Positions 1 to 20,127 of a stretch of DNA of 33,871 nucleotides are shown here, in pieces (the first letter of the stretch is position 1; the number at the start of each line of letters is the position of its first letter). This DNA is from a virus. Lineage: Duplodnaviria > Heunggongvirae > Uroviricota > Caudoviricetes. The stretch lies in IMG/VR virus record IMGVR_UViG_2579778856_000005. One strand, 5' to 3'. The translations under genes and the position numbers were made by a program. The notes under the pieces are model-generated. The model worked only from the letters and a program-made list of their open reading frames with translations, ran no database searches and was not told the DNA's origin.

Positions 1-1284
1 ATGGAATCCCTAACGTTACAACCCATCGCTCGTGTCGATGGCACTATTAATCTGCCCGGTTCCAAGAGCGTTTCTAACCGCGCTTTATTGCTGGCGGCAT
101 TAGCACACGGCAAAACAGTATTAACCAATCTGCTGGATAGCGATGACGTGCGCCATATGCTGAATGCATTAACAGCGTTAGGGGTAAGCTATACGCTTTC
201 AGCCGATCGTACGCGTTGCGAAATTATCGGTAACGGTGGTCCATTACACGCAGAAAGTGCCCGGGAGTTGTTCCTCGGTAACGCCGGAACGGCAATGCGT
301 CCGCTGGCGGCAGCACTTTGCCTGGGTAGCAATGATATTGTACTGAGCGGTGAACCGCGAATGAAAGAACGCCCGATTGGTCATCTGGTGGATGCGCTGC
401 GCCAGGGCGGGGCGAAGATCACTTACCTGGAACAAGAAAATTATCCGCCATTGCGTTTACAGGGCGGCTTTACTGGCGGCAACGTTGATGTTGATGGCTC
501 CGTTTCCAGCCAGTTCCTCACCGCACTGTTAATGACTGCGCCTCTTGCGCCGGAAGATACGGTGATTCGTATTAAAGGCGATCTGGTTTCTAAACCTTAT
601 ATCGATATCACCCTCAATCTGATGAAGACGTTTGGTGTTGAAATTGAAAATCAGCACTATCAACAATTTGTCGTAAAAGGGGGGCAGTCTTACCAGTCTC
701 CGGGCACTTATTTGGTTGAAGGCGATGCATCTTCGGCTTCTTATTTCCTGGCAGCAGCAGCAATCAGAGGCGGCACTGTAAAAGTGACCGGCATTGGACG
801 CAACAGTATGCAGGGTGATATTCGCTTTGCTGATGTTCTGGAAAAAATGGGCGCGACCATTTGCTGGGGCGATGATTATATTTCCTGCACGCGTGGTGAA
901 CTGAACGCCATTGATATGGATATGAACCATATTCCCGATGCGGCGATGACCATTGCCACCGCGGCGTTATTTGCAAAAGGCACCACCACGCTGCGCAATA
1001 TCTATAACTGGCGTGTTAAAGAGACCGATCGCCTGTTTGCGATGGCAACAGAACTGCGTAAAGTCGGTGCGGAAGTCGAAGAGGGGCATGATTTCATTCG
1101 CATTACGCCACCGGAAAAACTGAAATTTGCTGAGATCGCCACTTATAATGATCACCGGATGGCGATGTGTTTCTCGCTGGTCGCATTATCAGATACGCCT
1201 GTGACGATTCTTGATCCAAAATGTACCGCTAAAACTTTTCCAGACTATTTCGAGCAATTGGCGCGGATAAGTCAACCCGGCTGA
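1..1284 (+). CDS. aroA: 3-phosphoshikimate 1-carboxyvinyltransferase (EPSP synthase), complete
   Basis: 427-aa ORF beginning [37 protein letters not shown] and ending [13 protein letters not shown]; recalled as near-identical to E. coli K-12 AroA over its full length. Not verified by search. Confidence 0.97.
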
Positions 1285-1539: not shown

Positions 1540-2112
1540 TTACATTTCAGGTTGCGTTATGACAGTCCCAACAGGGTGATAGCGGTAGATCGTTGACAGT
1601 CCAATATCATAGATAATTGCCAGCCGCTTTCTGTCATACCCTTTCTGGAGCAATCTTGCGATCTGCTCATGCTGCTCCTTCGTCAGTTTCGGGCGACGTC
1701 CTCCAACTCTTCCTTGTGCTCGCGCAGCAGCCAGTCCAGCCAGCGTGCGCTCAACTATCAGTTCACGCTCCATTTCTGCCAGTGCACCCATCATATGAAA
1801 AAAGAACCTTCCCATCGGAGTGCTGGTATCGATTGAATCCGTCAGACTGCGAAAATTGACACCTTTTGCGCGTAGCTCTTCTGTGAGAGCAATGAGGTGT
1901 TTCATTCTTCTACCCAACCGATCCAGCTTCCAGACCACCAATGTATCCCCTCTTTTAAGGCACTTTAAAGCGCGTTTCAGGCCTGGTCGTTCCGACTTGG
2001 TTCCGCTCATTTTGTCCTCAAAAATCTGTTCACATCCTGCGCACATTAATGCATTGCGTTGCAAATCTGTGTTTTGGTCATTTGTTGACACACGTATGTA
2101 GCCAATCAGCAT
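1540..2112 (-). CDS. Serine DNA invertase, Pin/Gin/Cin/Hin family
   Basis: 190 aa from the internal ATG (MLIGYIRVSTNDQNTDLQRNAL...), with the catalytic Ser in the YxRVST motif and a C-terminal HTH. Strongly resembles e14 Pin and Mu Gin as recalled. The track ORF extends 43 codons upstream without an obvious start signal; an AAGGGAG RBS precedes the ATG at 2112. Confidence 0.92.
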   Translation of the reverse strand: MLIGYIRVSTNDQNTDLQRNALMCAGCEQIFEDKMSGTKSERPGLKRALKCLKRGDTLVVWKLDRLGRRMKHLIALTEELRAKGVNFRSLTDSIDTSTPMGRFFFHMMGALAEMERELIVERTLAGLAAARAQGRVGGRRPKLTKEQHEQIARLLQKGYDRKRLAIIYDIGLSTIYRYHPVGTVITQPEM

Positions 2113-2168
2113 TAAAAATACTCCCTTTTGAGTGGTTAAAGTACTGAGATAATGTGGGGAGGATTTGA

Positions 2169-2193
2169 GAGATAAACGTTGGTTTGGGGGAAG
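2169..2193 (+). other. Crossover site A (gix/cix-like) in front of cassette 1
   Basis: AGATAAACG-TT-GGTTTGGGGGAAGG. The half-site on the complementary strand (TTCCCCCAAACC) fits the invertase half-site consensus TTnTCnnAAACC, with a 2-bp core TT. Confidence 0.6.
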
Positions 2194-2612
2194 GCTCTGC
2201 ATTGCCTGTTGGTGTGCCTGTTCCATGGCCCACCGCCACACCGCCAGCAGGCTGGTTAAAGTGCGACGGGCGCGCCTTTACAAAAGAACAATATCCTGTT
2301 CTGGCCAGAGTCTACCCGACCCTCCGTCTTCCCGATTTACGCGGTGAGTTTATCCGTGGATGGGACGACGGGCGAAAAGTGGATACAGGGCGCGATCTGC
2401 TTTCACGGCAGGATGGTACAAGTTTTTCTCATTACGCAGGTAATTTTGACATTGGGTCTGGTCATTCAATCAATAACTATGACCAAATCGTTGACAACCA
2501 ACCTGGATTCTCCCGTTTTTCATTTGCAGGTCCTTCGCGAGGCGATGGGGTTAATTATGTGACCATTCGTCCCCGTAACATTGCGTTTAATTACATCGTA
2601 AGGGCGGCATAG
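2184..2612 (+). CDS. Silent tail-fibre C-terminal cassette 1 (promoterless, no ATG; collar-like conserved block plus variable tip)
   Basis: Open frame starting inside the crossover site. Encodes GEGSALPVGVPVPWPTATPPAGWLKCDGRAF...LPDLRGEFIRGWDDGRKVDTGR, then a unique ~58-aa tip, then the conserved end RPRNIAFNYIVRAA. Confidence 0.75.
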   Translation: MGEGSALPVGVPVPWPTATPPAGWLKCDGRAFTKEQYPVLARVYPTLRLPDLRGEFIRGWDDGRKVDTGRDLLSRQDGTSFSHYAGNFDIGSGHSINNYDQIVDNQPGFSRFSFAGPSRGDGVNYVTIRPRNIAFNYIVRAA

Positions 2613-2633
2613 AAACGTTGGTTTAGGAGAAGG
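2608..2633 (+). other. Crossover site B in front of cassette 2
   Basis: CATAGAAACG-TT-GGTTTAGGAGAAGG; same architecture as site A, with the conserved half abutting the repeated coding block. Confidence 0.6.
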
Positions 2634-2652
2634 CTCGGCGCTACCCGTTGGT

Positions 2653-3126
2653 GTGCCTGTTCCGTGGCCCACCGCCACACCGCCAGCAGGCTGGTTAAAG
2701 TGCGACGGGCGCGCCTTTACAAAAGAACAATATCCTGTTCTGGCCAGAGTCTACCCGACCCTCCGTCTTCCCGATTTGCGCGGTGAGTTTATCCGTGGAT
2801 GGGACGACGGGCGCAAAGTTGATACGGGGCGTTCATTGCTAAGTGGTCAGGCTGCAACATTTATTCGTACAGCTTTGCAGGATTATTACGGTTACGATCT
2901 GAATACTAATGTCAAAGTAGGTATCGCTTTTGCTACTGCTGATTCTGTTATAACCGTTGGAAACCCAGCTAATCCTAAAGCAGGAAATAATAGCGATTAT
3001 GTTCCTGCATCAGCAGATAACTCTATAACGGGTATTCAAAGGACAGCGGAGGATAATTTTACCGGGGCATGGATATCAATGCGCCCCCGCAATGTTGCGT
3101 TTAATTACATCGTAAGGGCCGCATAA
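2653..3126 (+). CDS. Silent tail-fibre C-terminal cassette 2
   Basis: The frame is open from just after the cassette-1 stop through the site (..RNVGLGEGSALPVGVPVPWP..). Same conserved block, unique AT-rich ~82-aa tip, same C-terminal RPRNVAFNYIVRAA. No ATG or RBS. Confidence 0.75.
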   Translation: MPVPWPTATPPAGWLKCDGRAFTKEQYPVLARVYPTLRLPDLRGEFIRGWDDGRKVDTGRSLLSGQAATFIRTALQDYYGYDLNTNVKVGIAFATADSVITVGNPANPKAGNNSDYVPASADNSITGIQRTAEDNFTGAWISMRPRNVAFNYIVRAA

Positions 3127-3147
3127 AAACGTTGGTTTAGGAGAAGG
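3122..3147 (+). other. Crossover site C in front of cassette 3
   Basis: CATAAAAACG-TT-GGTTTAGGAGAAGG. Confidence 0.6.
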
Positions 3148-3166
3148 CTCGGCGCTACCCGTTGGT

Positions 3167-3598
3167 GTGCCTGTTCCGTGGCCCACCGCCACACCGCCAG
3201 CAGGCTGGTTAAAGTGCGACGGGCGCGCCTTTACAAAAGAACAATATCCTGTTCTGGTCAGAGTCTACCCGACCCTCCGTCTTCCCGATTTGCGCGGTGA
3301 GTTTATCCGTGGATGGGACGGTGGTCGCAAGGTTGATACCGGGCGTGCGCTACTTTCATTTCAGGAAGGGACTATCGTATCCGGTTTTGATGATAATGAT
3401 ACCGGAGATATCAGTTCGCTCGGCTCTACACAATACGGATTTGGTGACGCTTTAACCTCTAATCAACTGGGGGTCTTAAATGGCAAAAAGTGGATATTTG
3501 ATGCATCCTCTAAAGGTGCACAAAGATATGACTGGTGGGCTTATGTATCAGCTCGCCCCCGCAATATCGCATTTAACTATATCGTGAGGGCGGCGTGA
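3167..3598 (+). CDS. Silent tail-fibre C-terminal cassette 3
   Basis: Same conserved block, unique ~70-aa tip, C-terminal RPRNIAFNYIVRAA. Confidence 0.75.
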   Translation: MPVPWPTATPPAGWLKCDGRAFTKEQYPVLVRVYPTLRLPDLRGEFIRGWDGGRKVDTGRALLSFQEGTIVSGFDDNDTGDISSLGSTQYGFGDALTSNQLGVLNGKKWIFDASSKGAQRYDWWAYVSARPRNIAFNYIVRAA

Positions 3599-3604
3599 TA
3601 CCGT

Positions 3605-4219
3605 TCAGCCGGCAAGCGCCAGTGGCGCTTCCGGCCAGCTGATTTCAGGTGCCTTGCTGATATCCAGTGCGTTCAGCTCGTCGATATAATCCAGCACGGC
3701 GTTCAGTTTTGCCGTTTCTTCTGGTTTCAGACTGCGACCAGCACGCAGTTTGAGGTTGATAAGATCGACGGACGCCATCGCCTGTTTCACCCGTTGCTGG
3801 CGTTGCTGTCTGGCAACCTCCAGTTCTGCGGCTCGCTGCCGTTCAGTATCGGTTACCCACGCCTCACCGTTCCAGGTATCCCATGGCGTGGCTGGCTGTT
3901 TTGTGGTGGTGTCCGCCGGGTAATCACCCGGTTGGGTAATCAGAACGGGGTTACCGTTCTCCGTGCTGTATACCGTCTCGCCGCGGTGATCAGGCACATG
4001 CTCCCACCCGTTCAGCGTGGCAGTCCGGCAAACCACGTAACCCGAAATTGCTTCCGGCGGTGCATCGGCGCACGAATGTGCCGGAGTACCCACCCCAAGG
4101 GCGAGATACTCCACAGAGGATGAGGTGTATTCCCGGGTTTCCTCGTCATAGTGATATACAGTGATATCGCCCGCTACAGTGGCGATACCGTTTTCATCCA
4201 GAACTGCAGTGTTACTCAT
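3605..4219 (-). CDS. Tail fibre assembly protein (Tfa family)
   Basis: 204 aa immediately downstream of the fibre gene (TAATG overlap). GEAWV motif and C-terminal LNAVLDYIDELNALDISKAPEISWPEAP, typical of lambda Tfa / Mu U-type chaperones. Confidence 0.85.
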   Translation of the reverse strand: MSNTAVLDENGIATVAGDITVYHYDEETREYTSSSVEYLALGVGTPAHSCADAPPEAISGYVVCRTATLNGWEHVPDHRGETVYSTENGNPVLITQPGDYPADTTTKQPATPWDTWNGEAWVTDTERQRAAELEVARQQRQQRVKQAMASVDLINLKLRAGRSLKPEETAKLNAVLDYIDELNALDISKAPEISWPEAPLALAG

Positions 4220-5550
4220 TAAACTGCCCTCACAATGTAATTAAGTGCAATGCTACGGGGTCTGACAGTGATACCCTTCGCATACCCGCTTCTGATAGAG
4301 GTCAGAATAGTAGCCTGCATACCATTGTCTGACATTGCCACGACAGGATCGCTGAATGTTGTCCCGTCCGGCATTTTAAAGCTGCCCTCACGAAGGTCTG
4401 TAATGGAATCTTCATTGTTGAATCCCATGCCGACTATCCCCGAGGTTCCCGTAGTGTCCTGGTTATAATAATCCAGCATTGCTGTTCTTAACAGCGTTGC
4501 CCCTTGTGCGGACAGCAACTTACGTCCTGTATCAACTTTGCGCCCGTCGTCCCATCCACGGATAAACTCACCGCGTAAATCGGGAAGACGGAGGGTCGGG
4601 TAGACTCTGGCCAGAACAGGATATTGTTCTTTTGTAAAGGCGCGCCCGTCGCACTTTAACCAGCCTGCTGGCGGTGTGGCAGTGGGCCACGGAACAGGTA
4701 CACCAACGGGCAGCGCCGAGCCTTCCCCCAAACCAAGGTAATTGAGGACATCTTTTATACTGCCCTTAGCGATAATAGCGCGACCAATAGCTGTAAGGGT
4801 TGCCAGCTCTGCGCGGTCTGCTCCGGTAAAATAAGGCAACCGATCTGCTGCAGTGGCAAGTCCTGCCAGAGCAGTGAGCGTGGCATCTGCCGGTTGTTTT
4901 CCGTTTGCCAGATCGTATGCAGCCTTGACCGCTTTCGGTGTGGCGGCCAGTATTTCAGACGTGCTGTTGATGGCACTGCTCAATTGTACGGTGCCTTTTG
5001 CCGTCAGCGAGGCAGCAGGCACTCCCGTTATCTGACTCCACGGGTGAGTGTGGCTGACGGGCGCCTTGCCGGCTGCAAGGTCGTATGCAGCCTTGACCGC
5101 CTTCGGCGTGGCAGCCTCAGTTTCTGATTGACTGTCCGTGGCGCTGCTCAGTTGTACGGTGCCTTTTGCCGTCAGTGAAGCCGCAGGCACTCCCGTTATC
5201 TGACTCCACGGGTGAGTGTGGCTGGCAGGCGCCTTGCCGGCTGCCAGGTCGTATGCAGCCTTGACCGCTTTTGGTGTGGCGGCCAGCGTTTCAGAGGTGC
5301 TGTTGGTGGCACTGCTCAGTTGGGTGAACCCCTTAGCTGTCAGTGTCGCGTCCGGGTGGTTACGGGAACGTACGTGTTCAGCCAGTGACTGTGCGGCTTC
5401 CTCCGTTTTCTTCTTCAGCCATTTCGTCCTGTTTGCCAGTTGCCGGGGGGCTCGATTTGATATCCCGTCTGCACCACCCAGAACCGGATCTGATGTCTCC
5501 AGTTGATAGATATTTTCTTCCCACTTTTCTGTTTCATTCAGGTTTCCCAT
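4219..5550 (-). CDS. Tail fibre protein (currently expressed copy)
   Basis: 443 aa from the ATG at 5550 (GGGAG RBS). Shaft repeats (TAKGTVQLSSA..ETEAATPKAVKAAYDLA..SHTHPWSQITGVPA). The C-terminal third carries the same collar-like block as the three cassettes and ends RPRSIALNYIVRAV. Confidence 0.9.
   Translation of the reverse strand: MGNLNETEKWEENIYQLETSDPVLGGADGISNRAPRQLANRTKWLKKKTEEAAQSLAEHVRSRNHPDATLTAKGFTQLSSATNSTSETLAATPKAVKAAYDLAAGKAPASHTHPWSQITGVPAASLTAKGTVQLSSATDSQSETEAATPKAVKAAYDLAAGKAPVSHTHPWSQITGVPAASLTAKGTVQLSSAINSTSEILAATPKAVKAAYDLANGKQPADATLTALAGLATAADRLPYFTGADRAELATLTAIGRAIIAKGSIKDVLNYLGLGEGSALPVGVPVPWPTATPPAGWLKCDGRAFTKEQYPVLARVYPTLRLPDLRGEFIRGWDDGRKVDTGRKLLSAQGATLLRTAMLDYYNQDTTGTSGIVGMGFNNEDSITDLREGSFKMPDGTTFSDPVVAMSDNGMQATILTSIRSGYAKGITVRPRSIALNYIVRAV
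4716..4745 (-). other. Crossover site D inside the expressed fibre gene (inverted relative to A-C)
   Basis: Reverse complement reads AATTACC-TT-GGTTTGGGGGAAGG. The conserved half is identical to site A; the site spans codons N-Y-L-G-L-G-E-G at the constant/variable boundary. Confidence 0.6.
4880..5340. repeat. About 170-bp in-frame tandem repeats (three copies) in the tail-fibre shaft
   Basis: gtcgtatgcagccttgaccgc recurs at ~4920, ~5090 and ~5258; the protein motif TAKGTVQLSSA...AATPKAVKAAYDLAAGK..SHTHPWSQITGVPAASL is repeated. Confidence 0.6.
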
Positions 5551-5552
5551 AA

Positions 5553-6131
5553 TCAACTGCTCCCGTGGTTATAACTGCCATCATGGATGGCGGTATTGTT
5601 ATAGCGAATGGCCACAGACTGATACTCCAGGCTGGCCAGATGGCAGCGGGCCGGTGCAAATGCAGCGAGCGTCTGACGCAGCATCGCGGCCTGATCGTTA
5701 GTAATGGGCTGTTTCAGAATAACGCGATAAACCGCCCAGGCGGCTGCATCTCCATGAACAAACAGTCCGTTATAGCTGCGATTGCCGTCGTAACTGAGAC
5801 GACCTGTGCCTTCAATCAGATCCACTTCACCAAAGCCAAAACGGCGGATAACTTCCCGGATTGACCACGGCGTCCCTTTATACCGGTGCAGTTCGATGGC
5901 TGCTTTTATAAGCATGCGGCGAACATCGTCCGATTCCGCCAGCTCCCAGCCATCGCCAGACAGTGAGAACTGCTCGCCCAGCCATGGCAGCGCGGAACTG
6001 TCGACGATATCGACGAGAAAGACCATCAGTACGCTCAGGTCGATGTTATCCAGCCGCCCTGCCAGTCTTCCCAGCGTCCTGAGACTGATATCACCCTCAA
6101 GCGGTGGCGGGAGTTGTAATGGCTCAGTCAT
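5553..6131 (-). CDS. Baseplate/tail protein, P2 gpI-like (Mu gp48-like)
   Basis: 192 aa from an ATG overlapping the upstream stop; sits between the J-like gene and the tail fibre. Family assignment by position and recall. Confidence 0.7.
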   Translation of the reverse strand: MTEPLQLPPPLEGDISLRTLGRLAGRLDNIDLSVLMVFLVDIVDSSALPWLGEQFSLSGDGWELAESDDVRRMLIKAAIELHRYKGTPWSIREVIRRFGFGEVDLIEGTGRLSYDGNRSYNGLFVHGDAAAWAVYRVILKQPITNDQAAMLRQTLAAFAPARCHLASLEYQSVAIRYNNTAIHDGSYNHGSS

Positions 6132-7227
6132 CAGACACTCCACTCATGTTAAGTGTGATCGCCGTACAGTTTGCCCATTCGTTTTCTGCCACCACCCGCA
6201 GTGCCGGTGTCACCAGTTCAACCTGGTACACCCCGGAAACGGACAATGCACTGATAATCTGGCTGGGGACAATATCACGCCCCAGCGTGGCGGCACGTGA
6301 TGCCACCCAGTTCTGTATGGCGCTGTTAGCGGCATCTTTTACAGACCTGGCATCCTGATCACGATAGATCGTAATCCTGGCTTCAATGGTGTAATCCACC
6401 TTCACTGGTGTTTTAGCCCGCACTGTATCAGTGAGTGGCCTGACTTTCTCATCAGAGCAGAAACTCTCTACCAGCGTGAGAACACCGCCGTCCGGCAGAC
6501 CGGTACTGAGCAGCGGATACAGATCTACGGTCCCGGGAACCGGGGAAAGCACAGCAACATCGACAATGTTGGGATGGGCCTGCATGGCATGAAAGCGGTA
6601 TGCGCCACGGCTTCCGGCATTGGTGAATGACTCCGGGGCCAGCCTGATACGCTCCCGGAGCCTGTCATCGTCTTCCTGTTCTGAACCGCCGGAACTGGCC
6701 ATCAGATTGCTCACCAGCAGGTTAACGTTATCAATCTCATCGAGTAACTGACTGACCTGCGCAGGTTGCCAGCCGTTACCAGCGGTACCGGGTTCGGTAC
6801 AGGTGGACGTGACATTGACCAGCAGCAATCCGGCCTTCAGTACCACATCTGTATCGGTGGCAAAAATAACGCTGTCGGAAGCGCTGACGCGGGTGCCTGC
6901 CGGGATCAGCACATCAATGGCCAGTGCCTCATCTACGGAGAACTGGAGCGTGGTGGTGGCAGGCTGCGCGGCAAGACGGTATACACCGACCAGTTCACCG
7001 AGGTAATCAATCATCGGCTCACGGGCAAAGGCGACCAGATTCTGCTTTGCTGCCTCCTGTACCGCAACCCTGACCAGCATTTCGCGATAGGCCCACAGAT
7101 CAATCAGCAGACGTTCTGCCTGTGCCGGGTACAGCGTTTTGCCGGTATCCGCTTCATACTTCGCAATCATTTCTGCCGTGATTTTGTCGGCATCGCGTTC
7201 AATAAAATCGGGTTCTGTCAGCGCCAT
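6124..7227 (-). CDS. Baseplate J-like protein (Mu gp47 / P2 gpJ family)
   Basis: 367 aa; AGGAG RBS; classic position between the W-like and I-like genes. Confidence 0.85.
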   Translation of the reverse strand: MALTEPDFIERDADKITAEMIAKYEADTGKTLYPAQAERLLIDLWAYREMLVRVAVQEAAKQNLVAFAREPMIDYLGELVGVYRLAAQPATTTLQFSVDEALAIDVLIPAGTRVSASDSVIFATDTDVVLKAGLLLVNVTSTCTEPGTAGNGWQPAQVSQLLDEIDNVNLLVSNLMASSGGSEQEDDDRLRERIRLAPESFTNAGSRGAYRFHAMQAHPNIVDVAVLSPVPGTVDLYPLLSTGLPDGGVLTLVESFCSDEKVRPLTDTVRAKTPVKVDYTIEARITIYRDQDARSVKDAANSAIQNWVASRAATLGRDIVPSQIISALSVSGVYQVELVTPALRVVAENEWANCTAITLNMSGVSDD

Positions 7228-7565
7228 AGCAGCTCCTGAGTCCGGGTCTGTCCGTCTGAGCCTTTCCAGCTCACCCGGAGCGTAAGATGTTCGCCGTCGA
7301 CGGCGGGTTTAACTGACATAAGCTGGCAGCGGGGCTCCCAGCGCCGGATGGCATCGACGGATTCGCGCACCACATGCGGAATGGCCCGGTCTACAGGCCA
7401 GTCGATATAAAGATGCAGATTGCTGCCGAACTCCGGGCGATGCGGGTCGCTGCCGCGGGGAGTCCGCAGGATAATTTGAATCGCCTGCCGGATATCATCC
7501 AGCCCCCGGACAATTTCGCCGGGAGCCTGCAGGGCTGGTTGCCAGAATACTGAGGTTGTTTTCAT
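7218..7565 (-). CDS. Baseplate wedge protein, gpW/gp25-like (Mu gp46)
   Basis: 115 aa, the size and position of GPW/gp25 family proteins. Confidence 0.8.
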   Translation of the reverse strand: MKTTSVFWQPALQAPGEIVRGLDDIRQAIQIILRTPRGSDPHRPEFGSNLHLYIDWPVDRAIPHVVRESVDAIRRWEPRCQLMSVKPAVDGEHLTLRVSWKGSDGQTRTQELLWR

Positions 7566-7619
7566 GGGGGCAGTATTGCCCCCGTGCGGGAACGCTGATA
7601 TTAAAGGCGTTTAAAAAGC

Positions 7620-8216
7620 TCAGTGGGAGTGGTGGCTGGAGTTTTCGCCATCAGACAACATACTGCCCGTGGCATGGACATTCCCTTTAATCTCGATATT
7701 GCCATGGATGGTCGCGGTAACACCTTCACCACCAGAACCCGCCATGCCTCCTTCGTAAATCAGCTTACCCCTGACACGCAGATCTCCGGTAAGTTCGGTT
7801 TCCGGTGCGTCAATCGTGGCTTTCTGTGTTTTCAATACCACATCAGCACCACACTCAATGACAATATGCTCAATGCCGCCCCGGATGATCAGAGTGTGCG
7901 TCTTCCGGTTGTAGCTGTACTCTGCACCATCAGCAAACCGGGTTCCCCGGATATTTTTGTCACTGAACGGTGGTTTATCGACGTCTGAATACACCGCGCC
8001 CAGAATAACACCATCCTCGCCGTTGGCATCGAGCAGCACCTCAACCTGCTCCCCCACGTCAGGGAGCCAGTAATCTTTGTTATCCTGGGTATTGCGCTGC
8101 AGCACGTTAAGCCAGTTTGTGCGCAGGTTATCGCATTCAGGCAGACGAACGCGGGCCTGAACCCTGTCGGCATCAACGGCACTGACCGTACCGACCTGAC
8201 GAGTGACACCAGTCAT
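7620..8216 (-). CDS. Baseplate assembly / spike protein, gpV-like (Mu gp45)
   Basis: 198 aa with a Gly-rich C-terminus; ATGA overlap with the upstream gene. Confidence 0.8.
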   Translation of the reverse strand: MTGVTRQVGTVSAVDADRVQARVRLPECDNLRTNWLNVLQRNTQDNKDYWLPDVGEQVEVLLDANGEDGVILGAVYSDVDKPPFSDKNIRGTRFADGAEYSYNRKTHTLIIRGGIEHIVIECGADVVLKTQKATIDAPETELTGDLRVRGKLIYEGGMAGSGGEGVTATIHGNIEIKGNVHATGSMLSDGENSSHHSH

Positions 8217-9567: not shown

Positions 9568-10451
9568 CACACACTCCTCGTCAGTATTCTGGCGGCCATT
9601 GCACTTAATCCCGGAGACATGCGGTTGAATGCTGTTCCGACGGCGTTAAGCTGCCCGGAAACGGTATCCAGAGCACCTGCAATATTTCTTTTGTCCACAC
9701 CACTCAGCGCAGACTGTGCCTGCTGTACATACGTGGCTGCTTCGCTGGCTGTTCTGGCCAGACTGATGGCATCGGGCATGGATTCAGAGAGTGCGTTAAA
9801 CGCCGGAACACTTTTCCCCAGAGCCCCGGAGATATTACCCAGTCCGCTCATCAGCCCCGGCACACGGGTCAGTGCGACAACGGGGTTATCCTTCATTTTC
9901 TGTGTCACCCGAACGGCGCTGATAGTGGTCTGGAGTACAGACTGCGCCTGTTTCGCATAGTTGACGCCGTTGCGGATGAACTGCGCCACCCCTGAAGGTG
10001 AAGGTATGGCACCGGAGACCGCCCCGACACCCGGGAGCTTCGTGCGTATTGCCGGTGGTTGCAGAGGATTTTTCGGGTCACCGGTGTATTCCCGGAGAGA
10101 CACGGTGGCACTGACAGCCAGCACGTTGCCGGTACTGTCAGTCTGCTCGCTGGTTGCAGTCACATCGGTGATCACGAACCAGCCGCGATAGTCACCGTTG
10201 CCGAAGACCAGCGCCAGTGCCTGATGGGCTTTCATGGCTGTTCGCAGTCTCGCCAGCTCCACATCGGGTACACAATAATGCTGATGGAAAACCAGAGTTA
10301 TCTGGATTTCGTCCAGCCTGTCGCCGACGAACTGCAGACCAGGCTTACCCCCGATGCGGGCATGCTCCGCATAATCGACGCCGAACGTGGCCTCGAAGCC
10401 GTCCCAGTAGGTAATCAGCTCAAACTCAATATCACCCAGTACGGCAAACAT
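9567..10451 (-). CDS. Tail protein with P2 gpU-like N-terminal domain and a long Ala/Ser-rich C-terminal extension
   Basis: 294 aa; the N-terminal ~125 aa (GKPGLQFVG..ITL..ALALVFGNGDYRGWFVITDVTATSEQ) resembles the gpU tail-terminator family. Intact only in this copy. Confidence 0.7.
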   Translation of the reverse strand: MFAVLGDIEFELITYWDGFEATFGVDYAEHARIGGKPGLQFVGDRLDEIQITLVFHQHYCVPDVELARLRTAMKAHQALALVFGNGDYRGWFVITDVTATSEQTDSTGNVLAVSATVSLREYTGDPKNPLQPPAIRTKLPGVGAVSGAIPSPSGVAQFIRNGVNYAKQAQSVLQTTISAVRVTQKMKDNPVVALTRVPGLMSGLGNISGALGKSVPAFNALSESMPDAISLARTASEAATYVQQAQSALSGVDKRNIAGALDTVSGQLNAVGTAFNRMSPGLSAMAARILTRSV

Positions 10452-13402
10452 CAGCGGTACTCCTTACGTTGTTTCTGAGCCAGCAGACGCTCCAGCATTT
10501 TTTCCAGCTCATGCAGACTCATATTCAGGGCACCAGTCAGTCCTGCAGGCGCTGTGGTTTCCCTGCCATTGAGGAAAAACTGAGGATTAAAGCTGACCTG
10601 GATACCACCAGACGTTCCACCGCCGGTTGCAGCTGCACCACGGCCTGAATATCCGGCAGCCAGGATTTCAGGCGAGGGGATACGGGGAACATCCGGTGTC
10701 ATCTCATTTGCCAGACGTTGCCCTGGTAAAATCGATGCCCGGGTGGAGAGCGGAATAGCGGGCATGGAAGACAAACTATTGATTACGGCTCCGATCGCAT
10801 TTTTAGCAGACGACATAAACCCATTGATATCGGGCAACGGCATACTGAAGCGAACACCTGAAGTGTTATCCCGTATTTCTGGCCCCTGAATGCTCACGGG
10901 CATTCTGGGGAGCAGTTCACTGGCCATTCGCTGCCCGGCCAGAGCTGCAAGCGGAGTGGTCCGCTGCAGGCCAATGGCGGCCCCCTGCGCGATATTGTCA
11001 CCAAAGCCCATAAACACGCGGCTCGGCGAATGAATGCCCAGCTTTTCGCTGAACCAGCCACTGATGCTGTCACCCATTCCGGTTACACTGGATTTGAGCG
11101 ACTCCCATTTGTTTTTGATACCGTTAATCAGACCGTCGACAAGATGGCCACCGAAGTCGGTGAACTTTGCCGGCAGATCAACACCAAGATATTTCAGCGC
11201 AGCTGCAAAGGCTTTATAGAGCAGACCTGCCGGCGACCAGTTAATCAGCAGCTTACCAGTTCCCGCGATACCGCCGTTAAAGGCTTCCTGAATGTCAGCC
11301 CAGCACTGTTTAAACCAGCTACTGATGCTGTCACCCATTCCGGTTACACTGGATTTGAGCGACCCCCATTTGTTTTTGATACCGTTAATCAGACCGTCGA
11401 TAAGATGGCCACCGAAGTCGGTGAACTTTGCCGGCAGAGCAACGCCGAAATATTTCAGCGCAGCCGCAAAGGCTTTATAGAGCAGGCCTGCCGGCGACCA
11501 GTTAATCAGCAACTTACCAATTCCCACAATGCCGCCGTTAAAGGCTTCCTGAATGTCAGCCCAGCGCTGTTTAAACCAACCACTGACAGCCCCCCAGTTG
11601 CGGTAGATAAGGTAAGCTGCTGTCGCGACAGCGGTGATAACGAGACCGATGGGATTCATCATCAGCGCTCGCCCAATCCAGAGAACGGCACGTGCAGCGC
11701 TCATAAAACCGCGAACGAGGCTGCCCGCCAGAACTTTGCTGAGTTTCAGTCCTCCGCTGGTCAGTCGGCTGAATCCAGTGACAAGCCAGCGTAATTTGCC
11801 ACCTTCTCCGAGTGCGGTAGTCAGTCGATGCCAGTTGGTCCGGAGTAAAACAGTAGTTTTCCAGACGTTCACAAAGGGGGAAATAAGGAGATTCAGCCCC
11901 AGTTTGAGACCAATAGTCGCTATCTTAATCGCAAGGAGCGCACTGATGAGCTTAAAAGCCCCACTGACAAATTGCGGGTGAGTCGCTACCCAGTGTTTTG
12001 TCCCCTGAATGAGTGGGAGCAGTTCCTGAGTCAGAGAAATAAAAGATGGAGCTAATTGATCGCCCAGCGTAATTGCCAGATCGCGACTGCTGACCATAAG
12101 TGTTTTAGTGGCTTCAAGGGGAGATTTCAGCCGCTGATCATAAGCACTGGCAAGCAAATCGTTATCCGCAGCCCTGAGAGCACCGGCACGGATCTCTCGA
12201 TATCTGTCCATGTTGGCCAGCATCGGGCGGATAAATGCCATGACCTGCATATCCGCGAACATATCGCCCAGACCAAAGTTTTTCGCCAGAGCCTGAAGTG
12301 CCTCATCTCTTGCCGTATCATTCTTTATTTTCATGGCTGATTTGAAGCCGGCCAGCGCTTCGGGGCTTTTGGCATTGAGGTAACGTTCTATAACACTCAA
12401 CATCCCTTCAATCGGAGAGATCCCCGCAGCTTTATAACTCGCAATAGATCCCTGCAAATCAATACCCAGATCAGCAAACTGTTTCTGAGTATCGCGGGCA
12501 AAAATTTTGGTAAGAAAGTTTTTAAAATTATTGGCTGCTTCGTCGGTGGAACCTGCACCGATTTTTGCTATCTGGAGACTGGCCCCGATTTCAGCAACAG
12601 CCTCTTTTCCACTGGCAATACCCGCCATCATTGGGGCCAGGGACTGCATCCACTTGACCTGATCCGGGATTTCAAATGACCCCTGGTCACCGGCATAAGC
12701 CATAATATTCTGAACGGCACCAAAATCTCTGGCCGCGCCTTTCAGGGAGTTTTGCCAGACTGCGGCCACTTTTGCCCAGTCCTGAGCAGACGTGCGTGTT
12801 GCCGTTGCCGCGCGGGCAATATCCGGCATCAGAAAACCGATATCTGACACATTATCAATATTGTCGCTGATGAGTGAACCCACCGCCTCCTGCAGCTCAT
12901 CCTGATACTGATTGTATTTAAGCGCCCAGCCTTTTATCTGTCCGGCAAGTGCATCCCGCGTTTTATTGTCATATTTTGCGGTGATCGACATATCAATCAT
13001 TTTGTCCTGAAAAGACATGGACTGCTGAACGGCAGGGGAAACCGTATGATAAACAGTCTGTGCCATGCCATACGCTTCAATCCCCTGACCATACAGCGCC
13101 ATGCGGTTAGCTTTCAGCGCATCACTGGTAGCGGATGCCGCTGACAGACGGCGCTGCTGGCGCTCAATTTGCTCCATGGTGCGGCTTACCCGCAGCAGCT
13201 CGCTGTTGAGATGCTGCATCCGGGAAGAACCCAGTTGACCATAACGTTCTGTTGCACGGGTTAAAGCGTTCTGACGTTCCTGCAGGCGGCGTGAGGTATC
13301 GCTCAGGGAATCAAGCGCACGGCGGGTACCGCTCATTGCAGAACGGAATGTGCTGCCAATCATCCCGCCGATAACAACGCCGACTGAAAACTGTCCCGAC
13401 AT
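10451..13402 (-). CDS. Tail tape measure protein (copy 1)
   Basis: 983 aa, N-terminal coiled coil, internal 86-aa tandem repeat, GGAGG RBS. Confidence 0.9.
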   Translation of the reverse strand: MSGQFSVGVVIGGMIGSTFRSAMSGTRRALDSLSDTSRRLQERQNALTRATERYGQLGSSRMQHLNSELLRVSRTMEQIERQQRRLSAASATSDALKANRMALYGQGIEAYGMAQTVYHTVSPAVQQSMSFQDKMIDMSITAKYDNKTRDALAGQIKGWALKYNQYQDELQEAVGSLISDNIDNVSDIGFLMPDIARAATATRTSAQDWAKVAAVWQNSLKGAARDFGAVQNIMAYAGDQGSFEIPDQVKWMQSLAPMMAGIASGKEAVAEIGASLQIAKIGAGSTDEAANNFKNFLTKIFARDTQKQFADLGIDLQGSIASYKAAGISPIEGMLSVIERYLNAKSPEALAGFKSAMKIKNDTARDEALQALAKNFGLGDMFADMQVMAFIRPMLANMDRYREIRAGALRAADNDLLASAYDQRLKSPLEATKTLMVSSRDLAITLGDQLAPSFISLTQELLPLIQGTKHWVATHPQFVSGAFKLISALLAIKIATIGLKLGLNLLISPFVNVWKTTVLLRTNWHRLTTALGEGGKLRWLVTGFSRLTSGGLKLSKVLAGSLVRGFMSAARAVLWIGRALMMNPIGLVITAVATAAYLIYRNWGAVSGWFKQRWADIQEAFNGGIVGIGKLLINWSPAGLLYKAFAAALKYFGVALPAKFTDFGGHLIDGLINGIKNKWGSLKSSVTGMGDSISSWFKQCWADIQEAFNGGIAGTGKLLINWSPAGLLYKAFAAALKYLGVDLPAKFTDFGGHLVDGLINGIKNKWESLKSSVTGMGDSISGWFSEKLGIHSPSRVFMGFGDNIAQGAAIGLQRTTPLAALAGQRMASELLPRMPVSIQGPEIRDNTSGVRFSMPLPDINGFMSSAKNAIGAVINSLSSMPAIPLSTRASILPGQRLANEMTPDVPRIPSPEILAAGYSGRGAAATGGGTSGGIQVSFNPQFFLNGRETTAPAGLTGALNMSLHELEKMLERLLAQKQRKEYR
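11040..11585. repeat. 258-bp in-frame tandem repeat inside the tape measure gene (two full copies plus a partial third)
   Basis: ccagc(c/t)actgatgctgtcacccattccggttacactggatttgagcga recurs at 11055 and 11313; the protein repeat is WFKQ(R/C)WADIQEAFNGG...SVTGMGDSIS. Confidence 0.8.
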
Positions 13403-13477
13403 AGTGGTTAACCTCCGGGGAAGGTGAAAAGACGTGAGGGGATAACGCAGAACAGCCGCTACTGGCGGCTGTCTGTA

Positions 13478-13895
13478 CTATGATTTGTCGCCGTACTCGC
13501 TTTTGATTTGCTCTTCAGCCTGCTCCAGCCACATCTCCAGATCGTCAGTATCGAGGGCATCAATCTCCCCCGGCTGAAACCGGAACCATCTCGCCAGCAG
13601 CCCCTGCGCCTGCGTCAGCGCCCTGGTTGCTCTCACCCATCCCCGTGATGAGCTGAAATCGTTTCTGTAACTGCAGGTAATCAGCCAGATCCATATTGTC
13701 GAGATCTTCCGGGAGAAGACCAGTACTGCGGGCAATCAGCGGTTCGTCCCAGTCTGCCGGGTTTTTGCTGATTTTGCGCACCTGCTTCAGGTCTTTTACC
13801 GTCAGGCGTTTCAGTTCAACCAGCTCAATTCTGGTGCCTGCAGCAGTGGTGAAGGGATAAGACAATTTAAAAGTATCGGATGGGGTCTGTGACAT
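13478..13895 (-). CDS. Tail assembly chaperone, putative frameshifted long form (GT / E+E' analogue)
   Basis: A second ORF (13478-13735) overlaps the 3' end of the chaperone ORF in the +1 (equivalently -2) frame and extends it by ~28 aa of plausible protein sequence (..IDALDTDDLEMWLEQAEEQIKSEYGDKS). Confidence 0.5.
13560..13895 (-). CDS. Tail assembly chaperone (lambda G / P2 E analogue), short form
   Basis: 111 aa, acidic, between tube and tape measure; AGGAG RBS. Confidence 0.8.
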   Translation of the reverse strand: MSQTPSDTFKLSYPFTTAAGTRIELVELKRLTVKDLKQVRKISKNPADWDEPLIARSTGLLPEDLDNMDLADYLQLQKRFQLITGMGESNQGADAGAGAAGEMVPVSAGGD

Positions 13896-13949
13896 GATTG
13901 TGCTCCTGTGTAAGTTCAGGGCAGTATGTCGGGAGAAGCGCGTGACGGA

Positions 13950-13990
13950 TATTAAAGGAGATTAAGAAGAAGGGGCCGGAGCCCCTGTGA
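13950..13990 (-). terminator. Putative intrinsic terminator/attenuator between tube region and chaperone
   Basis: Perfect palindrome AGGGGC-CGGA-GCCCCT (13971-13986) followed on the minus-strand transcript by a T-rich run (ttcttcttaatctccttt). Confidence 0.5.
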
Positions 13991-13992
13991 TG

Positions 13993-14274
13993 TCAGCAAG
14001 TGCGAAACCCCTTGCAGTTACGCAGGAAAGCGATGAGAAGCGTCTTTCCCTCAGATTTGCCGATGCCGGAGAACCAGTGGTCGGGAGGCTCCCATGCTTC
14101 AATCAAATCCGCCAGTTTGCGGGCCTTTGAACGTGTGCAGTCAATCGGGTCATTGGTTTTACGGGTATTAAAAAGGGTTTCCACCCCCGGAATATCAAGG
14201 AGGGTAAACCACGTACCATTTGACATGCCCAGTGCCGCACATCGTCCTCCTTTATCCGTCAGTTCAACACTCAC
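13993..14274 (-). CDS. Hypothetical small protein between tube and chaperone
   Basis: 93-codon open frame in a 380-bp gap; start codon ambiguous (GTG at 14274, or an internal ATG with a distant AAGGAGGA). Confidence 0.35.
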   Translation of the reverse strand: MSVELTDKGGRCAALGMSNGTWFTLLDIPGVETLFNTRKTNDPIDCTRSKARKLADLIEAWEPPDHWFSGIGKSEGKTLLIAFLRNCKGFRTC

Positions 14275-14276
14275 CG

Positions 14277-14798
14277 TCAGCCCCCGATATTGATACGGTA
14301 GTCAGTCAGTTGATCAACACCGCCGACCCGGAAGATGTTGGCCAGATAGTCCAGTTGCAGCAGCTCTTCACCATCCAGTACCTGTCTGATATACGTGCAG
14401 GTGAAGCTACTGGAGAACTCGGCGTTCTCGTGCTGTTTGAACGTCCCCAGCGGGTTCTTCTTGAACATAATCGTCAGGAAGGTGACCAGCGGGATTTCGT
14501 CAATCAGCCCCTGCGAGCTGTAGCGCTGGACGCTGGAACGACACTGCAGTGCCAGCGACCTGTACGGGTTCGCGGCAGACAGCATCGCATCGCGGTAAAA
14601 GCTGTTCCATTTGATTTCGCCTTCCAGCTTGTCAAAACCAGCCGGGAGTTCCACCTTACCCACCATCCCCAGCGCCTTGTGTTCCTGCATAATCATGGAG
14701 ACATCGGGGAGTTTAACTTCCTCAGCCCGTCCCAGCAGGTTAGTACCATCCAGATAGATGTTGGCATTCGTGATGCGGTTTATCTCAATCTTTGACAT
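14277..14798 (-). CDS. Tail tube protein (copy 1)
   Basis: 173 aa, ATGA overlap with the sheath stop; contractile-tail tube family by size and position. Confidence 0.9.
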   Translation of the reverse strand: MSKIEINRITNANIYLDGTNLLGRAEEVKLPDVSMIMQEHKALGMVGKVELPAGFDKLEGEIKWNSFYRDAMLSAANPYRSLALQCRSSVQRYSSQGLIDEIPLVTFLTIMFKKNPLGTFKQHENAEFSSSFTCTYIRQVLDGEELLQLDYLANIFRVGGVDQLTDYRINIGG

Positions 14799-16089
14799 CA
14801 GTTGCCCCCTTTCAGGGTTAACAGGTATTCCGAGGTGATCTCAGTCTCAAACGTCAGTCGCTCCAGCGGCGGTGGTGGCGTATATTTGTAGCTCAGCAAC
14901 AGGTGCCCGGCGGCCAGCTCCGTCTCCGGATTGCGGGCCGGATCAAACCAGCAACGGAAGCCCAGTACCGCACCATCACCAGTCATTTTGCGACCGTAGG
15001 CGTTGACCGACTCCGTCAGTGCATCAATCAGCGCCTGAGTAATCGGCATGTCGATGTACTGCTGGCTGAAATAACGAATGGACTCGTTGATCACATCACC
15101 GGTGCGGCGAACGTTCTCAAAGTTACGCATATGGGTGACCGTTGGCCATGCTGCCGTCCGGTTACCCCACAGACGAAGGCCGCTGCCGTAACTGCTGAAT
15201 ACCGTGGTGATCCCCTGTTCGTTAAGCAGGTTCACCTCACTCTGCGGGTCATCAATCATCGCGGACAGCTGGCGCTCCACGCCGGTGATCCCCAGAATCT
15301 CCTGATTGGAGGATGACCACCAGTAGCCCTTGTCCAGATCGACTCTGGCACGCAGACCTGCTGCACGCTGGCTGAGCGGCTCCAGACGCTCTGTGTTTGT
15401 CACCGGGTCATATACCTTCACATGCGGATAGCACAGACGGACGCGGTCGGAGCTGGTATTGAAGTTGATGGTGCCTTCCGGGCCACGACCTGCCAGAGCC
15501 TGTGCAAAGGTGGTACCGACAGGCGCATCAATGTAGGTTACCGCGCCCAGCTTCTCTGCCATGGCGATAAGCTCAACTGCGACACTCTTCTGGGTGCAGA
15601 ACACCGGCGCAATCAGAATTTTGGCGAAATAGCCGTACAGGTTGAAGCTGTCGTTAAGCAGCTTCATGCCGGTTCGGTTTCCGGCGCTGTTCACCCCGCC
15701 GATGATGTCCGCCGCAGTCACCTTCGACGGGTCCGCGTACTCATAGCTCACCTTCACGCTGCCACCGGCCTCAATAGCCTTGCCCAGGTTCGTGAGCACA
15801 CCCGCCTGCGCATCAACACGGTAGTCCGTGTTCGCCGTGTGGGTGGTGCTGCCTTCACTGTTTTTCACCACCACATTAGCGACAACCGGATGCGCCAGTC
15901 TGGCCTGCCCTGTCGATTTGTCAAAGGTAACCACCTCATCCTCGATCGCCGTTTTATGTTTCGCCGGGTCGAGGACGTTAATGACCAGAACGGTGCCTGC
16001 ACCATGGTCATAAATCGCATCCAGCGCCTGCGGAATGGTAAAGCCGGTGAACTGGCTGCCAAATGCCGCTGCGTCTTTCTCAGACAGGC
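14798..16089 (-). pseudogene. Tail sheath protein, 5'-truncated fragment (lacks ~45 N-terminal codons)
   Basis: Matches the intact sheath at 20649-22076 up to the duplication junction at 16089, then reads into out-of-frame U-derived sequence. Confidence 0.8.
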
Positions 16090-16302
16090 TGTTCGCAGTC
16101 TCGCCAGCTCCACATCGGGTACACAATAATGCTGATGGAAAACCAGAGTTATCTGGATTTCGTCCAGCCTGTCGCCGACGAACTGCAGACCAGGCTTACC
16201 CCCGATGCGGGCATGCTCCGCATAATCGACGCCGAACGTGGCCTCGAAGCCGTCCCAGTAGGTAATCAGCTCAAACTCAATATCACCCAGTACGGCAAAC
16301 AT
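16090..16302 (-). pseudogene. gpU-like tail protein, 3'-truncated fragment (first 71 codons)
   Basis: Identical to the N-terminus of the 9567-10451 protein (MFAVLGDIEFELITYWDGFEATFGVDYAEHARIGGKPGLQFVG...) then fused out of frame to sheath antisense sequence. Confidence 0.8.
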
Positions 16303-19253: not shown

Positions 19254-19410
19254 AGTGGTTAACCTCCGGGGAAGGTGAAAAGACGTGAGGGGATAACGCA
19301 GAACAGCCGCTACTGGCGGCTGTCTGTACTATGATTTGTCGCCGTACTCGCTTTTGATTTGCTCTTCAGCCTGCTCCAGCCACATCTCCAGATCGTCAGT
19401 ATCGAGGGCA

Positions 19411-19746: not shown

Positions 19747-19843
19747 GATTGTGCTCCTGTGTAAGTTCAGGGCAGTATGTCGGGAGAAGCGCGTGACGGA
19801 TATTAAAGGAGATTAAGAAGAAGGGGCCGGAGCCCCTGTGATG

Positions 19844-20125: not shown

Positions 20126-20127
20126 CG

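Follow-up and report, generated by a model that had tools for sequence, protein, structure and literature searches.

The right end of a BcepMu-like prophage of Escherichia coli very probably carries a multi-site inversion switch of the Gin/Cin/Min type, at which a site-specific recombinase exchanges the tip of the tail fibre. Near-identical prophages with three sites occur in public genomes as alternative isomers, and the crossover between these isomers could be placed within 7 bp at the predicted core of the sites. The four-site copy described here lies in the window, by which we mean the whole stretch of 33,871 nucleotides that was analysed.

Layout of the locus

The prophage carrying the locus is Mu-like and adjoined by aroA, with the locus forming its right end. 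It is a BcepMu-like transposable prophage on the chromosome and not a P1-related plasmid. A related element has been deposited as phage PhiKM. The locus comprises one invertase, four cix-like sites, three silent collar-plus-tip cassettes, one tfa and one expressed fibre gene (Table 1). A sequence-only reading of the window had proposed the invertase, the four sites, the three silent cassettes and the single tfa, and all were found where it had placed them.

Table 1. Features of the inversion locus, in positions of the window
Feature	Position	Strand	Basis or detail
Serine DNA invertase, 190 aa, Gin/Cin/Pin/Min ("Din") type	1540-2112	-	Pfam; identity to Gin and Cin
Candidate Fis-dependent recombinational enhancer, in the 5' part of the invertase gene	1959-2019	-	Two Fis-like motifs
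Site A (slot 1), GAGATAAACG-TT-GGTTTGGGGGAA	2167-2192	+	Core 2179-2180
Silent cassette A: collar, variable tip, conserved C-terminal strand RPRNIAFNYIVRAA	2181-2612	+	Pfam Collar PF07484; alignment
Site B; left half is the 3' end of cassette A (CATAGAAACG)	2606-2631	+	Core 2618-2619
Silent cassette B	2620-3126	+	Pfam
Site C; left half is the 3' end of cassette B (CATAAAAACG)	3120-3145	+	Core 3132-3133
Silent cassette C; one invertible unit with tfa and tip D (C+ tfa- D-)	3134-3598	+	Pfam
tfa, tail-fibre assembly (chaperone) gene, sole copy	3605-4219	-	Pfam Caudo_TAP, 5.6e-27
Fibre gene, expressed	4219-5550	-	ORF
Collar plus tip D, currently expressed	4219-4734	-	ORF; alignment
Site D, CTCAATTACC-TT-GGTTTGGGGGAA, inside the expressed gene	4723-4748	-	Core 4735-4736
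Constant N-terminal fibre part, 272 codons	4737-5550	-	Pfam Phage_fiber_2 in three stretches

The invertase ORF is intact, and its 5' end faces the invertible region, like that of gin in Mu. Its product contains a resolvase domain (PF00239, 8e-51) and an HTH_7 domain (PF02796, 1e-12), is 77% identical to Mu Gin and 73% identical to P1 Cin, and carries the motif MLIGYIRVSTNDQ. The serine of the RVS motif aligns with Ser9 of Gin, a position occupied by Ala in the mutant structure 3uj3. The protein thus agrees with Din-type invertases in its resolvase-type domain with HTH, its length of ~190 aa, a catalytic serine near position 9-10 and an identity above 60%. The ST131 genomes in which the isomers described below occur encode the identical protein (WP_000904922.1), and the gene is 99.6% identical in P1-like plasmids carrying the same module. 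In strain S5, an IS66-family element interrupts the invertase gene. For Din invertases, a Fis-dependent enhancer usually lies in the 5' region of the gene encoding them. Here, two motifs of the form G-N13-C, AT-rich in the middle, were found centred at gene positions 101 and 147, and equivalents in gin lie at the same positions. These two conserved Fis-like motifs suggest a possible enhancer role for the segment that holds them.

The motif TTGGTTTRGGRGAAGG has exactly four matches in the 33.9 kb, at 2179, 2618 and 3132 on the plus strand and at 4721-4736 on the minus strand. In shuffled sequence the mean was 0.05 matches, and four were reached in 0 of 100 shuffles. Sites A, B and C are oriented one way and D the opposite way. 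As in the 26-bp sites of Din invertases, two imperfectly inverted halves of 12 bp surround a 2-bp core, which is identical (TT) in all four; cix has the same core, whereas that of gix is TC. The right halves, GGTTT(A/G)GG(A/G)GAA, match those of cix and gix; for comparison, P1 cixL reads ATCCTAAACC-TT-GGTTTAAGAGAA and Mu gix reads ..AAAACC-TC-GGTTTACAGGAA. The left halves (..AAACG or ..TTACC) are degenerate and fit the dyad consensus poorly.

Each cassette runs from a right half-site through collar, variable tip and conserved C-terminal strand to a stop codon and the left half-site of the next cassette. An in-frame stop codon lies ahead of each of A, B and C, and a consensus scan of the plus strand ahead of the cassettes returned no sigma-70-like promoter, which is a weak negative. 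In the expressed gene, the constant part includes three 168-nt tandem fibre repeats (4898-5401), and the collar has matches to the T4 gp37 tip (2xgf, 5.5e-14) and to a short tail fibre (9cuy). The stop codon of this D-tipped gene overlaps the start codon of tfa. The codons at site D read N-Y-L-G-L-G-E-G, and the reading frame is kept across every site. Fusion in frame at the constant/variable boundary, as had been predicted, is borne out in strain AR_451, where an ORF is residue for residue the protein expected from joining the constant part to A.

From this layout we propose that the serine invertase would pair any two opposed 26-bp sites, cut at the TT core and flip the intervening DNA. Fis bound to an enhancer inside the invertase gene would presumably be needed, by analogy with related systems. 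All sites share one codon boundary (..NY[L/V]|GLGEG..), and inversions using the constant-adjacent site would therefore join the 272 constant codons in frame to another cassette. Enumeration of the inversions among four sites yields 12 DNA isomers, which between them encode four different fibres, ending in A, B, C or D. The "four host-range states" of the earlier reading are more accurately described as four tips distributed over 12 DNA isomers. The tfa gene moves together with the C/D unit. In 6 of the 12 isomers it has the same orientation as the fibre gene, and no isomer that expresses C is among these. In the other half tfa is flipped, and these isomers may yield no working fibres.

Natural isomers and the point of exchange

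In complete ST131 genomes, near-identical prophages sit at the same place by aroA, and they display three of the four isomers expected of a three-site version. D is expressed in strains 4/1-1 and 2/0 (inv|A+|C+ tfa- D-|const), C in AR_0055 and NR379 (inv|A+|D+ tfa+|C-|const), and A in AR_451 and S5 (inv|C+ tfa- D-|A-|const). The sequence-only reading had named cassettes fixed in all related prophages as an outcome that would count against a switch; the ST131 copies at aroA show three layouts, with crossover at the predicted core, and so favour switching.

To locate the crossover, the three cassettes of AR_451 and the three of AR_0055 were each compared with those of 4/1-1, and the C-cassette junction of strain 4/0 was added. 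The A and D cassettes of this strain do not differ from those of AR_451. With the base that follows the core counted as position 0, a given cassette shows 100% identity among the isomers over 430 nt, and mismatches are confined to -3 and positions ahead of it. The exchange is thereby placed between -3 and +5, within 7 bp (TTGGTTT). A crossover confined to 7 bp indicates site-specific and not homologous recombination. Exchange at the core with inversion products, as is characteristic of Din invertases, is documented here by comparative data rather than by an enzymatic assay. The window's own four-site copy would presumably be active in the same way.

The predicted fusions were also found as real proteins in a public protein collection. 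The constant-D fusion is present on at least 1000 contigs and the constant-A fusion on 998, and for the constant-C fusion 2 contigs match exactly, while a further 30 and 12 carry close variants. A constant-B fusion with the window's constant part was absent from this collection. Queries spanning from the constant part to the tip, at least 80% covered, matched 153 (A), 68 (B), 200 (C) and 327 (D) of 5,426 complete E. coli genomes; these counts are upper bounds because the search tool joins neighbouring pieces.

The four-site copy and exchange between prophages

Among the 5,426 complete E. coli genomes, none has the four-tip A-B-C-D layout, and the exact A-B-C tandem is found neither in these genomes nor in IMG/VR. 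In the window, the tail genes gpU'-tape-measure-tube-sheath' are also duplicated in tandem over 5,851 bp, which makes the prophage about 15% longer. The two copies differ by 27 internal mismatches (31 with ambiguous boundary bases), and the duplication junction was found in none of the 5,426 genomes. Because of this unique 5.85-kb duplication, the window copy may be defective or partly misassembled.

The switch might work without consequence for a phage, either in a defective prophage, where flipping would alter no host range, or as a module co-opted by the host, for example to set chimeric fibres against other phages, as has been reported for PinQ and PinR. Headful packaging of the lengthened prophage would presumably cut off the distal end together with the locus, the uniqueness of the duplication junction points the same way, and two reports describe prophage invertases in a defence role (PMC12529663; 10.1101/2025.03.28.646004). 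We nevertheless regard this as unlikely: no tail gene has lost its last intact copy, the ORFs of the fibre, tfa and the invertase are undamaged and match widespread alleles exactly, and the related PhiKM was deposited as a phage.

The variable part of cassette B matches, at 100% identity, the tip expressed by sister prophages near dsrB and rstA. Cassette B could in principle have been created by an assembly that merged two sister prophages of a single ST131 genome, in which case the locus would really have three sites; the identity to the tip near dsrB, the order A-B-C seen in no other genome and the mismatched duplication as a second unique feature would agree with this. We consider it improbable, as B sits as an exact cassette unit with intact half-sites on both sides, and three ordinary inversions suffice to reach the window layout from the usual two-prophage state of ST131. 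Moreover, strain 4/0 documents exchange between prophages at these sites, in a 43.6-kb chromosomal inversion whose two junctions coincide exactly with TT-core sites belonging to two separate prophages, and P1-like plasmids have four-tip and larger arrays, the same module occurring there with at least seven cassettes.

A broader reading, which we put forward tentatively and at somewhat less than even confidence, is that the TT-core sites are a shared exchange point among BcepMu-like prophages, P2-like prophages and P1-like phage-plasmids of the same cell, where one invertase acting in trans flips tips within a prophage, trades entire cassettes among the elements residing together and inverts segments of the chromosome. 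If so, by-product inversions would range from tens of kb to about a megabase. Cassette B would then have come from the sister prophage near dsrB, and the sister prophage of the source genome would have been left with two tips only, E and D.

A second process, homologous recombination between the 229-bp collars, operates in addition, removing cassettes and reshuffling collars; the suggestion of the sequence-only reading that such recombination could act as well is borne out. There are three inverted repeats (229-274 nt, 89-93% complementary), each formed by one cassette collar and the expressed-gene collar, and all end at 4739. The sole deletion seen, in KE54, is attributed to homologous recombination and not to the sites because its collar is chimeric, A-type to +53 and D-type from +194. 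The window and the RefSeq ST131 copies also pair collars with tips differently. That RecA-dependent recombination at the 229-bp inverted collar repeats also made the inversions, the "sites" being merely the conserved start of the coding repeat, is very improbable despite the collar identity, the KE54 chimera and the altered linkage, since all the inversion isomers compared have their exchange point between -3 and +5, the collars differ at 17-37 positions yet are chimeric in no inversion junction, left-flank homology ends after about 5 bp, and an intact Gin-type invertase lies next to sites that match cix and gix.

Relation to known inversion systems

The architecture is already known, the switch type dating from the 1980s-90s, and the window represents a larger member. 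The sequence-only reading had named the Min region of plasmid p15B as the closest analogue, and this is apt. Min, a multiple-inversion region studied by Sandmeier, Iida and Arber in 1990-92, reportedly has six sites on a P1-type plasmid. Min and the window share a Din-family invertase, more than two sites per cluster with overlapping invertible segments, and a constant 5' fibre part that can be joined in frame to any of several 3' ends. With n sites there are 2x(n-1)! isomers, 240 for the six sites of Min and 12 for the window, which has four sites and lies in a chromosomal BcepMu-like prophage instead of a P1-type plasmid.

Mu (G/Gin) and P1 (C/Cin) have homologous invertases and homologous 26-bp sites, with the GGTTTNNNNGAA half and a 2-bp core, and in both, as in the window, the fibre gene carries the site where its constant part meets the variable one. 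Mu and the window both have the invertase at the right end of the phage, facing the invertible segment, and in P1, as in the window, long inverted repeats (636 nt in P1) directly adjoin the sites on their inner side. Mu and P1 each work with two sites and two tips, every tip having a chaperone gene of its own (U, U'), whereas the window has four sites, four tips and one tfa. The window tips are short T4-gp37-like collar hairpins, in contrast to the S-type ends of Mu. R64-type shufflons use the tyrosine recombinase Rci and sfx repeats, which are unrelated to the sites described here. They resemble the window in that multiple inversions choose one of several adhesin C-terminal ends, but membership in this group was rejected because the sole recombinase present is a serine recombinase.

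The novelty of the locus had been overrated, as three-site versions in E. coli prophages have already been published with PCR validation (PMC4272514; bioRxiv 10.1101/2022.05.07.487787), the latter a preprint on fibre inversions in ST131 prophages. The "shufflon" of the P2-like prophage in EPEC E2348/69 consists of an invertase and three partially homologous inverted repeats (Goldberg et al. 2014, PMC4272514). Its four coexisting variants, with three C-termini of one tail-fibre protein, were validated by PCR, and each variant turns into two others by inversions of about 2.2 and 1.8 kb (PMC4272514). Compared by architecture, its logic is that of the three-site ST131 relatives, where the inversions are about 2.0 and 1.6 kb; the window has one extra site and cassette, which gives 12 isomers and four tips.

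Tail-fibre tips decide which bacteria a phage or tailocin attaches to. The tips described here presumably differ in receptor or host range, and a four-way switch could allow one prophage to hedge over four receptors. Our understanding of how such switches work is unchanged; the value of the locus is that of a well-documented natural example, with the crossover mapped to base-pair level from public genomes alone, and of a concrete case of cassette trading between prophages that is open to testing. In pandemic ST131, the locus generates structural variation, and the assemblies of near-identical strains differ there; the same sites can flip 44 kb of chromosome between two prophages. In several isomers, the fibre gene is marked as a pseudogene by annotation pipelines.

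Gene arrangement and recombination apparatus

The sequence-only reading had proposed a four-site, three-cassette tail-fibre switch at 1540-5550, and the layout it described was confirmed by gene and ORF coordinates, motif copies and inverted repeats. Across the whole 33.9-kb window there are exactly four copies of the 16-nt motif TTGGTTTRGGRGAAGG: three on the plus strand, heading each of the fragments A, B and C, and one on the minus strand within the fibre gene. Shuffled sequences gave a mean of 0.05 matches, and four were reached in 0 of 100 shuffles. Each fragment is also paired with the fibre gene by inverted repeats of 229-274 nt, which are 89-93% complementary and share a common end at 4739.

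Features of the invertible locus (positions in the window)
Feature	Position	Strand	Remark
aroA	1-1284		window start
Prophage right end	from about 1540
Recombinase (invertase) gene, 190 aa	1540-2112	minus
ORF fragment A	2181-2612	plus	tandem; in-frame stop codon ahead
ORF fragment B	2620-3126	plus	tandem; in-frame stop codon ahead
ORF fragment C	3134-3598	plus	tandem; in-frame stop codon ahead
Tail-fibre assembly gene (tfa)	3605-4219	minus
Tail-fibre gene, 443 aa	4219-5550	minus

The recombinase carries resolvase and HTH_7 domains, shows 77% identity to Mu Gin and 73% to P1 Cin, and has an RVS-motif catalytic serine aligned with Gin Ser9. Membership of the shufflon (Rci) group was ruled out, as the enzyme is a serine recombinase. 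Like gin in Mu, its gene lies at the right end of the prophage and faces the invertible DNA. The crossover sites consist of a left half followed by TT-GGTTT(A/G)GG(A/G)GAA. In the same register P1 cixL reads ATCCTAAACC-TT-GGTTTAAGAGAA and shares the TT core, whereas Mu gix (..AAAACC-TC-GGTTTACAGGAA) has a TC core. The left half-site of each following cassette is made of the preceding cassette's stop codon and the next few bases, so that each cassette is a self-contained unit. A Fis motif scan was suggestive of a candidate recombinational enhancer. A scan for sigma-70 promoters and terminators, which is uninformative for late phage promoters, found fewer sites than in shuffled sequences.

The host prophage combines a Mu-type portal with P2-type baseplate, sheath, tube and tape-measure genes. 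Window positions 4604-5700 (fibre constant part and gpI region) are 99.9% identical to the deposited phage PhiKM, which is classified as Bcepmuvirus and has transposase, Gam, GemA and Mor-like genes. Related copies were found at numerous chromosomal positions (aroA, dsrB, rstA, yajQ, cueO, near sfaC and others). The sister prophages elsewhere in the E. coli chromosome (13 extracted loci) have the same invertase and draw on a common pool of tips, A-D plus E, F and G. The many insertion positions and the shared tip pool fit a transposable BcepMu-like phage.

Natural isomers and the point of exchange

A three-tip version of the module (A, C and D, where D is the tip expressed in the window) was found at the same aroA locus in complete ST131 genomes, with an identical invertase (WP_000904922.1). 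Three arrangements were observed there, written here from the invertase (inv) to the constant N-terminal part of the fibre (const), with strand signs. Strains 4/1-1 and 2/0 carry the D-expressed isomer, inv / A+ / C+ tfa- D- / const, as do EC958 and JJ1887 by BLAST span. AR_0055 and NR379 carry the C-expressed isomer, inv / A+ / D+ tfa+ / C- / const, and AR_451, S5 and many other genomes the A-expressed isomer, inv / C+ tfa- D- / A- / const. By enumeration, these are three of the four states reachable by a three-site system. They bear out the proposed switching; cassettes fixed in all relatives, which had been named as the finding that would speak against it, were not what the ST131 aroA locus revealed. 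BLAST junction counts were inflated by the joining of neighbouring pieces, and extracted loci were used instead. In S5 (NZ_CP107137.1, positions 2104-4853 of the extracted locus), the IS66-family element ISEc23 lies inside the invertase gene, making this strain a natural invertase knockout in the A-expressed isomer.

In-frame fusion of the constant part to each silent tip had also been predicted, and the fusions to A and C exist as proteins. The const-A fusion built from the window is identical to an ORF of AR_451 and was found on 998 contigs, and the const-C fusion is present in the protein collection; the exact predicted const-B fusion, with the window's own constant part, was absent from that collection. 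Tip B is instead the tip expressed by sister prophages near dsrB and rstA, whose fibre is longer. The window's own D-tipped fibre was found on at least 1000 contigs. In several isomers (five loci), PGAP calls the intact expressed fibre gene a pseudogene or 'missing N-terminus' fragments. The 415-, 426- and 443-aa fibre ORFs are complete despite these labels, which are an annotation artefact of the switch.

The isomers were compared base by base (4/1-1 with AR_451, and 4/1-1 with AR_0055). From the first G after the core, the 430 nt of each cassette (collar and tip) are 100% identical in the isomers compared, and no difference lies to the right of position -3. The three collars differ mutually at 17-37 positions, the nearest at +5, and together these observations place the exchange within the 7 bp TTGGTTT, core included. 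Homologous recombination was thereby ruled out as the main inversion mechanism: recombination in the 229-bp repeat would scatter the crossovers and leave chimeric collars, whereas the mapped exchange is confined to TTGGTTT. The sequence-only reading was nevertheless right that homologous recombination also acts. KE54 (NZ_CP141079.1, locus positions 3759-3987) is a two-tip derivative without tip A, in which the surviving collar is A-type to +53 and D-type from +194. This chimeric collar indicates that the loss of cassette A was due to homologous recombination between direct repeats of the collar and not to the invertase. The collar-tip pairings also differ between the window and RefSeq ST131 genomes. 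Homologous recombination is thus a second, slower process beside site-specific inversion.

Fibre tips and relation to known inversion systems

All four tips begin with an invariant collar domain (PF07484), continue with 60-95 variable residues and end in RPRN(I/V)AFNYIVRA(A/V). The collar matches the T4 gp37 tip (PDB 2xgf). A second alignment, which places the terminal motif on the gp37 C-terminus NIAFNYIVR, is weak and by itself not significant. In the gp37 structure, the terminal strand comes back to the collar; if that holds, the conserved ends of the tip would be structural and its middle the receptor-binding part. The constant part of the fibre contains three 168-nt (56-aa) tandem repeats (window 4898-5401). 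Four relatives with more repeat copies have fibres of 531-667 aa on chromosomes and of >1,100 aa on P1-like plasmids. As the copy number differs among relatives, fibre length varies independently of the tip. Searching the PDB with the Tfa sequence returned chance matches only.

Enumeration for four sites gave 12 isomers and four expressed tips. The isomer count follows 2 x (n-1)!, which gives 4 for three sites and agrees with the 240 isomers reported for the six sites of p15B. The single tfa points the same way as the fibre gene in half of the isomers, but in none of those that express C. In the A-expressed ST131 isomer, the silent D cassette intervenes and tfa lies downstream of D.

In P1 and Mu, two sites serve two tips, each with a chaperone gene of its own, whereas the window has four sites, four tips and one tfa. 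The classical case of multi-site inversion is the Min system of p15B, to which the invertase of pJIE250-3 is reportedly 98.5% identical. P1-like plasmids carry the same module, with an invertase gene that is 99.6% identical. One of them, p1-HYM1 (NZ_CP141766.1, locus positions 2470-7936), combines at least seven annotated collar-tip cassettes with a single recombinase and a single tfa, and is a much larger version of the same design. A P2-like prophage of EPEC has three inverted repeats that give four coexisting variants with three alternative C-termini; this system was PCR-validated and termed a shufflon (Goldberg et al. 2014, PMC4272514). For ST131 wound isolates, a preprint reports that PCR confirmed inversions between fibre genes of these very prophages, there labelled Entero_P88 and Burkho_phiE255 (10.1101/2022.05.07.487787). 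Tail fibres are also among the recurrent targets of programmed inversions (Milman et al. 2023, PMC9881135). The published multi-site cases and the plasmid modules place the window, with its four tips, within a known kind of switch rather than in a new one. The switch interpretation is supported, with high confidence for membership of the family and good confidence for this copy.

Peculiarities of this copy and exchange between prophages

The tandem order A-B-C was found in 0 of 5,426 complete E. coli genomes, and pattern scans of IMG/VR gave no matches to the A-to-B and B-to-C junctions. The window also contains a 5,851-bp tandem duplication (10236-16086 and 16087-21937), which spans the tape-measure and tube genes, two small genes and parts of gpU and of the sheath gene, and whose junction yields a truncated sheath and a truncated gpU. 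This junction was likewise absent from all 5,426 genomes. The two copies differ at 27 positions (31 including ambiguous boundary bases); against the ST131 aroA prophage, 22 mismatches were counted in copy 1 and 5 in copy 2. An origin of copy 1 in the ST131 sister prophage was not supported, as it matched no better there than to the aroA prophage. The duplication could be genuine or an assembly artefact; a genuine one would overfill the capsid of a headful-packaging Mu-like phage. The A-B-C order and the duplication together reflect either unusual inter-prophage exchanges in the source strain or a partly chimeric assembly.

A search over inversion moves showed that three inversions, two inter-prophage and one local, suffice to turn the usual ST131 two-prophage state into the exact layout of the window. 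After these moves, the sister prophage would retain just tips E and D.

In 4/1-1, a P2-like prophage near the aroA prophage (locus positions 4803 and 7548) carries a classical two-tip, two-chaperone segment with its own 199-aa recombinase and gix-like sites with a TC core (..AAAACC-TC-GGTTTACGAGAA). Because of the different core dinucleotide, these sites should be incompatible with TT-core sites.

Exchange between prophages at TT-core sites is real, as strain 4/0 demonstrates, and invertase-mediated trading of cassettes may take place between co-resident elements. Compared with 4/1-1, strain 4/0 (NZ_CP023849.1 952000-1001900) has a 43.6-kb inversion, with junctions at locus positions 5766 and 49415, which extends from aroA through serC, pflB and dmsABC and takes in an entire P2-like prophage. 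Both ends map exactly to TT-core sites, which belong to two different prophages; the P2-like fibre gene is thereby joined to tip C from the aroA prophage.
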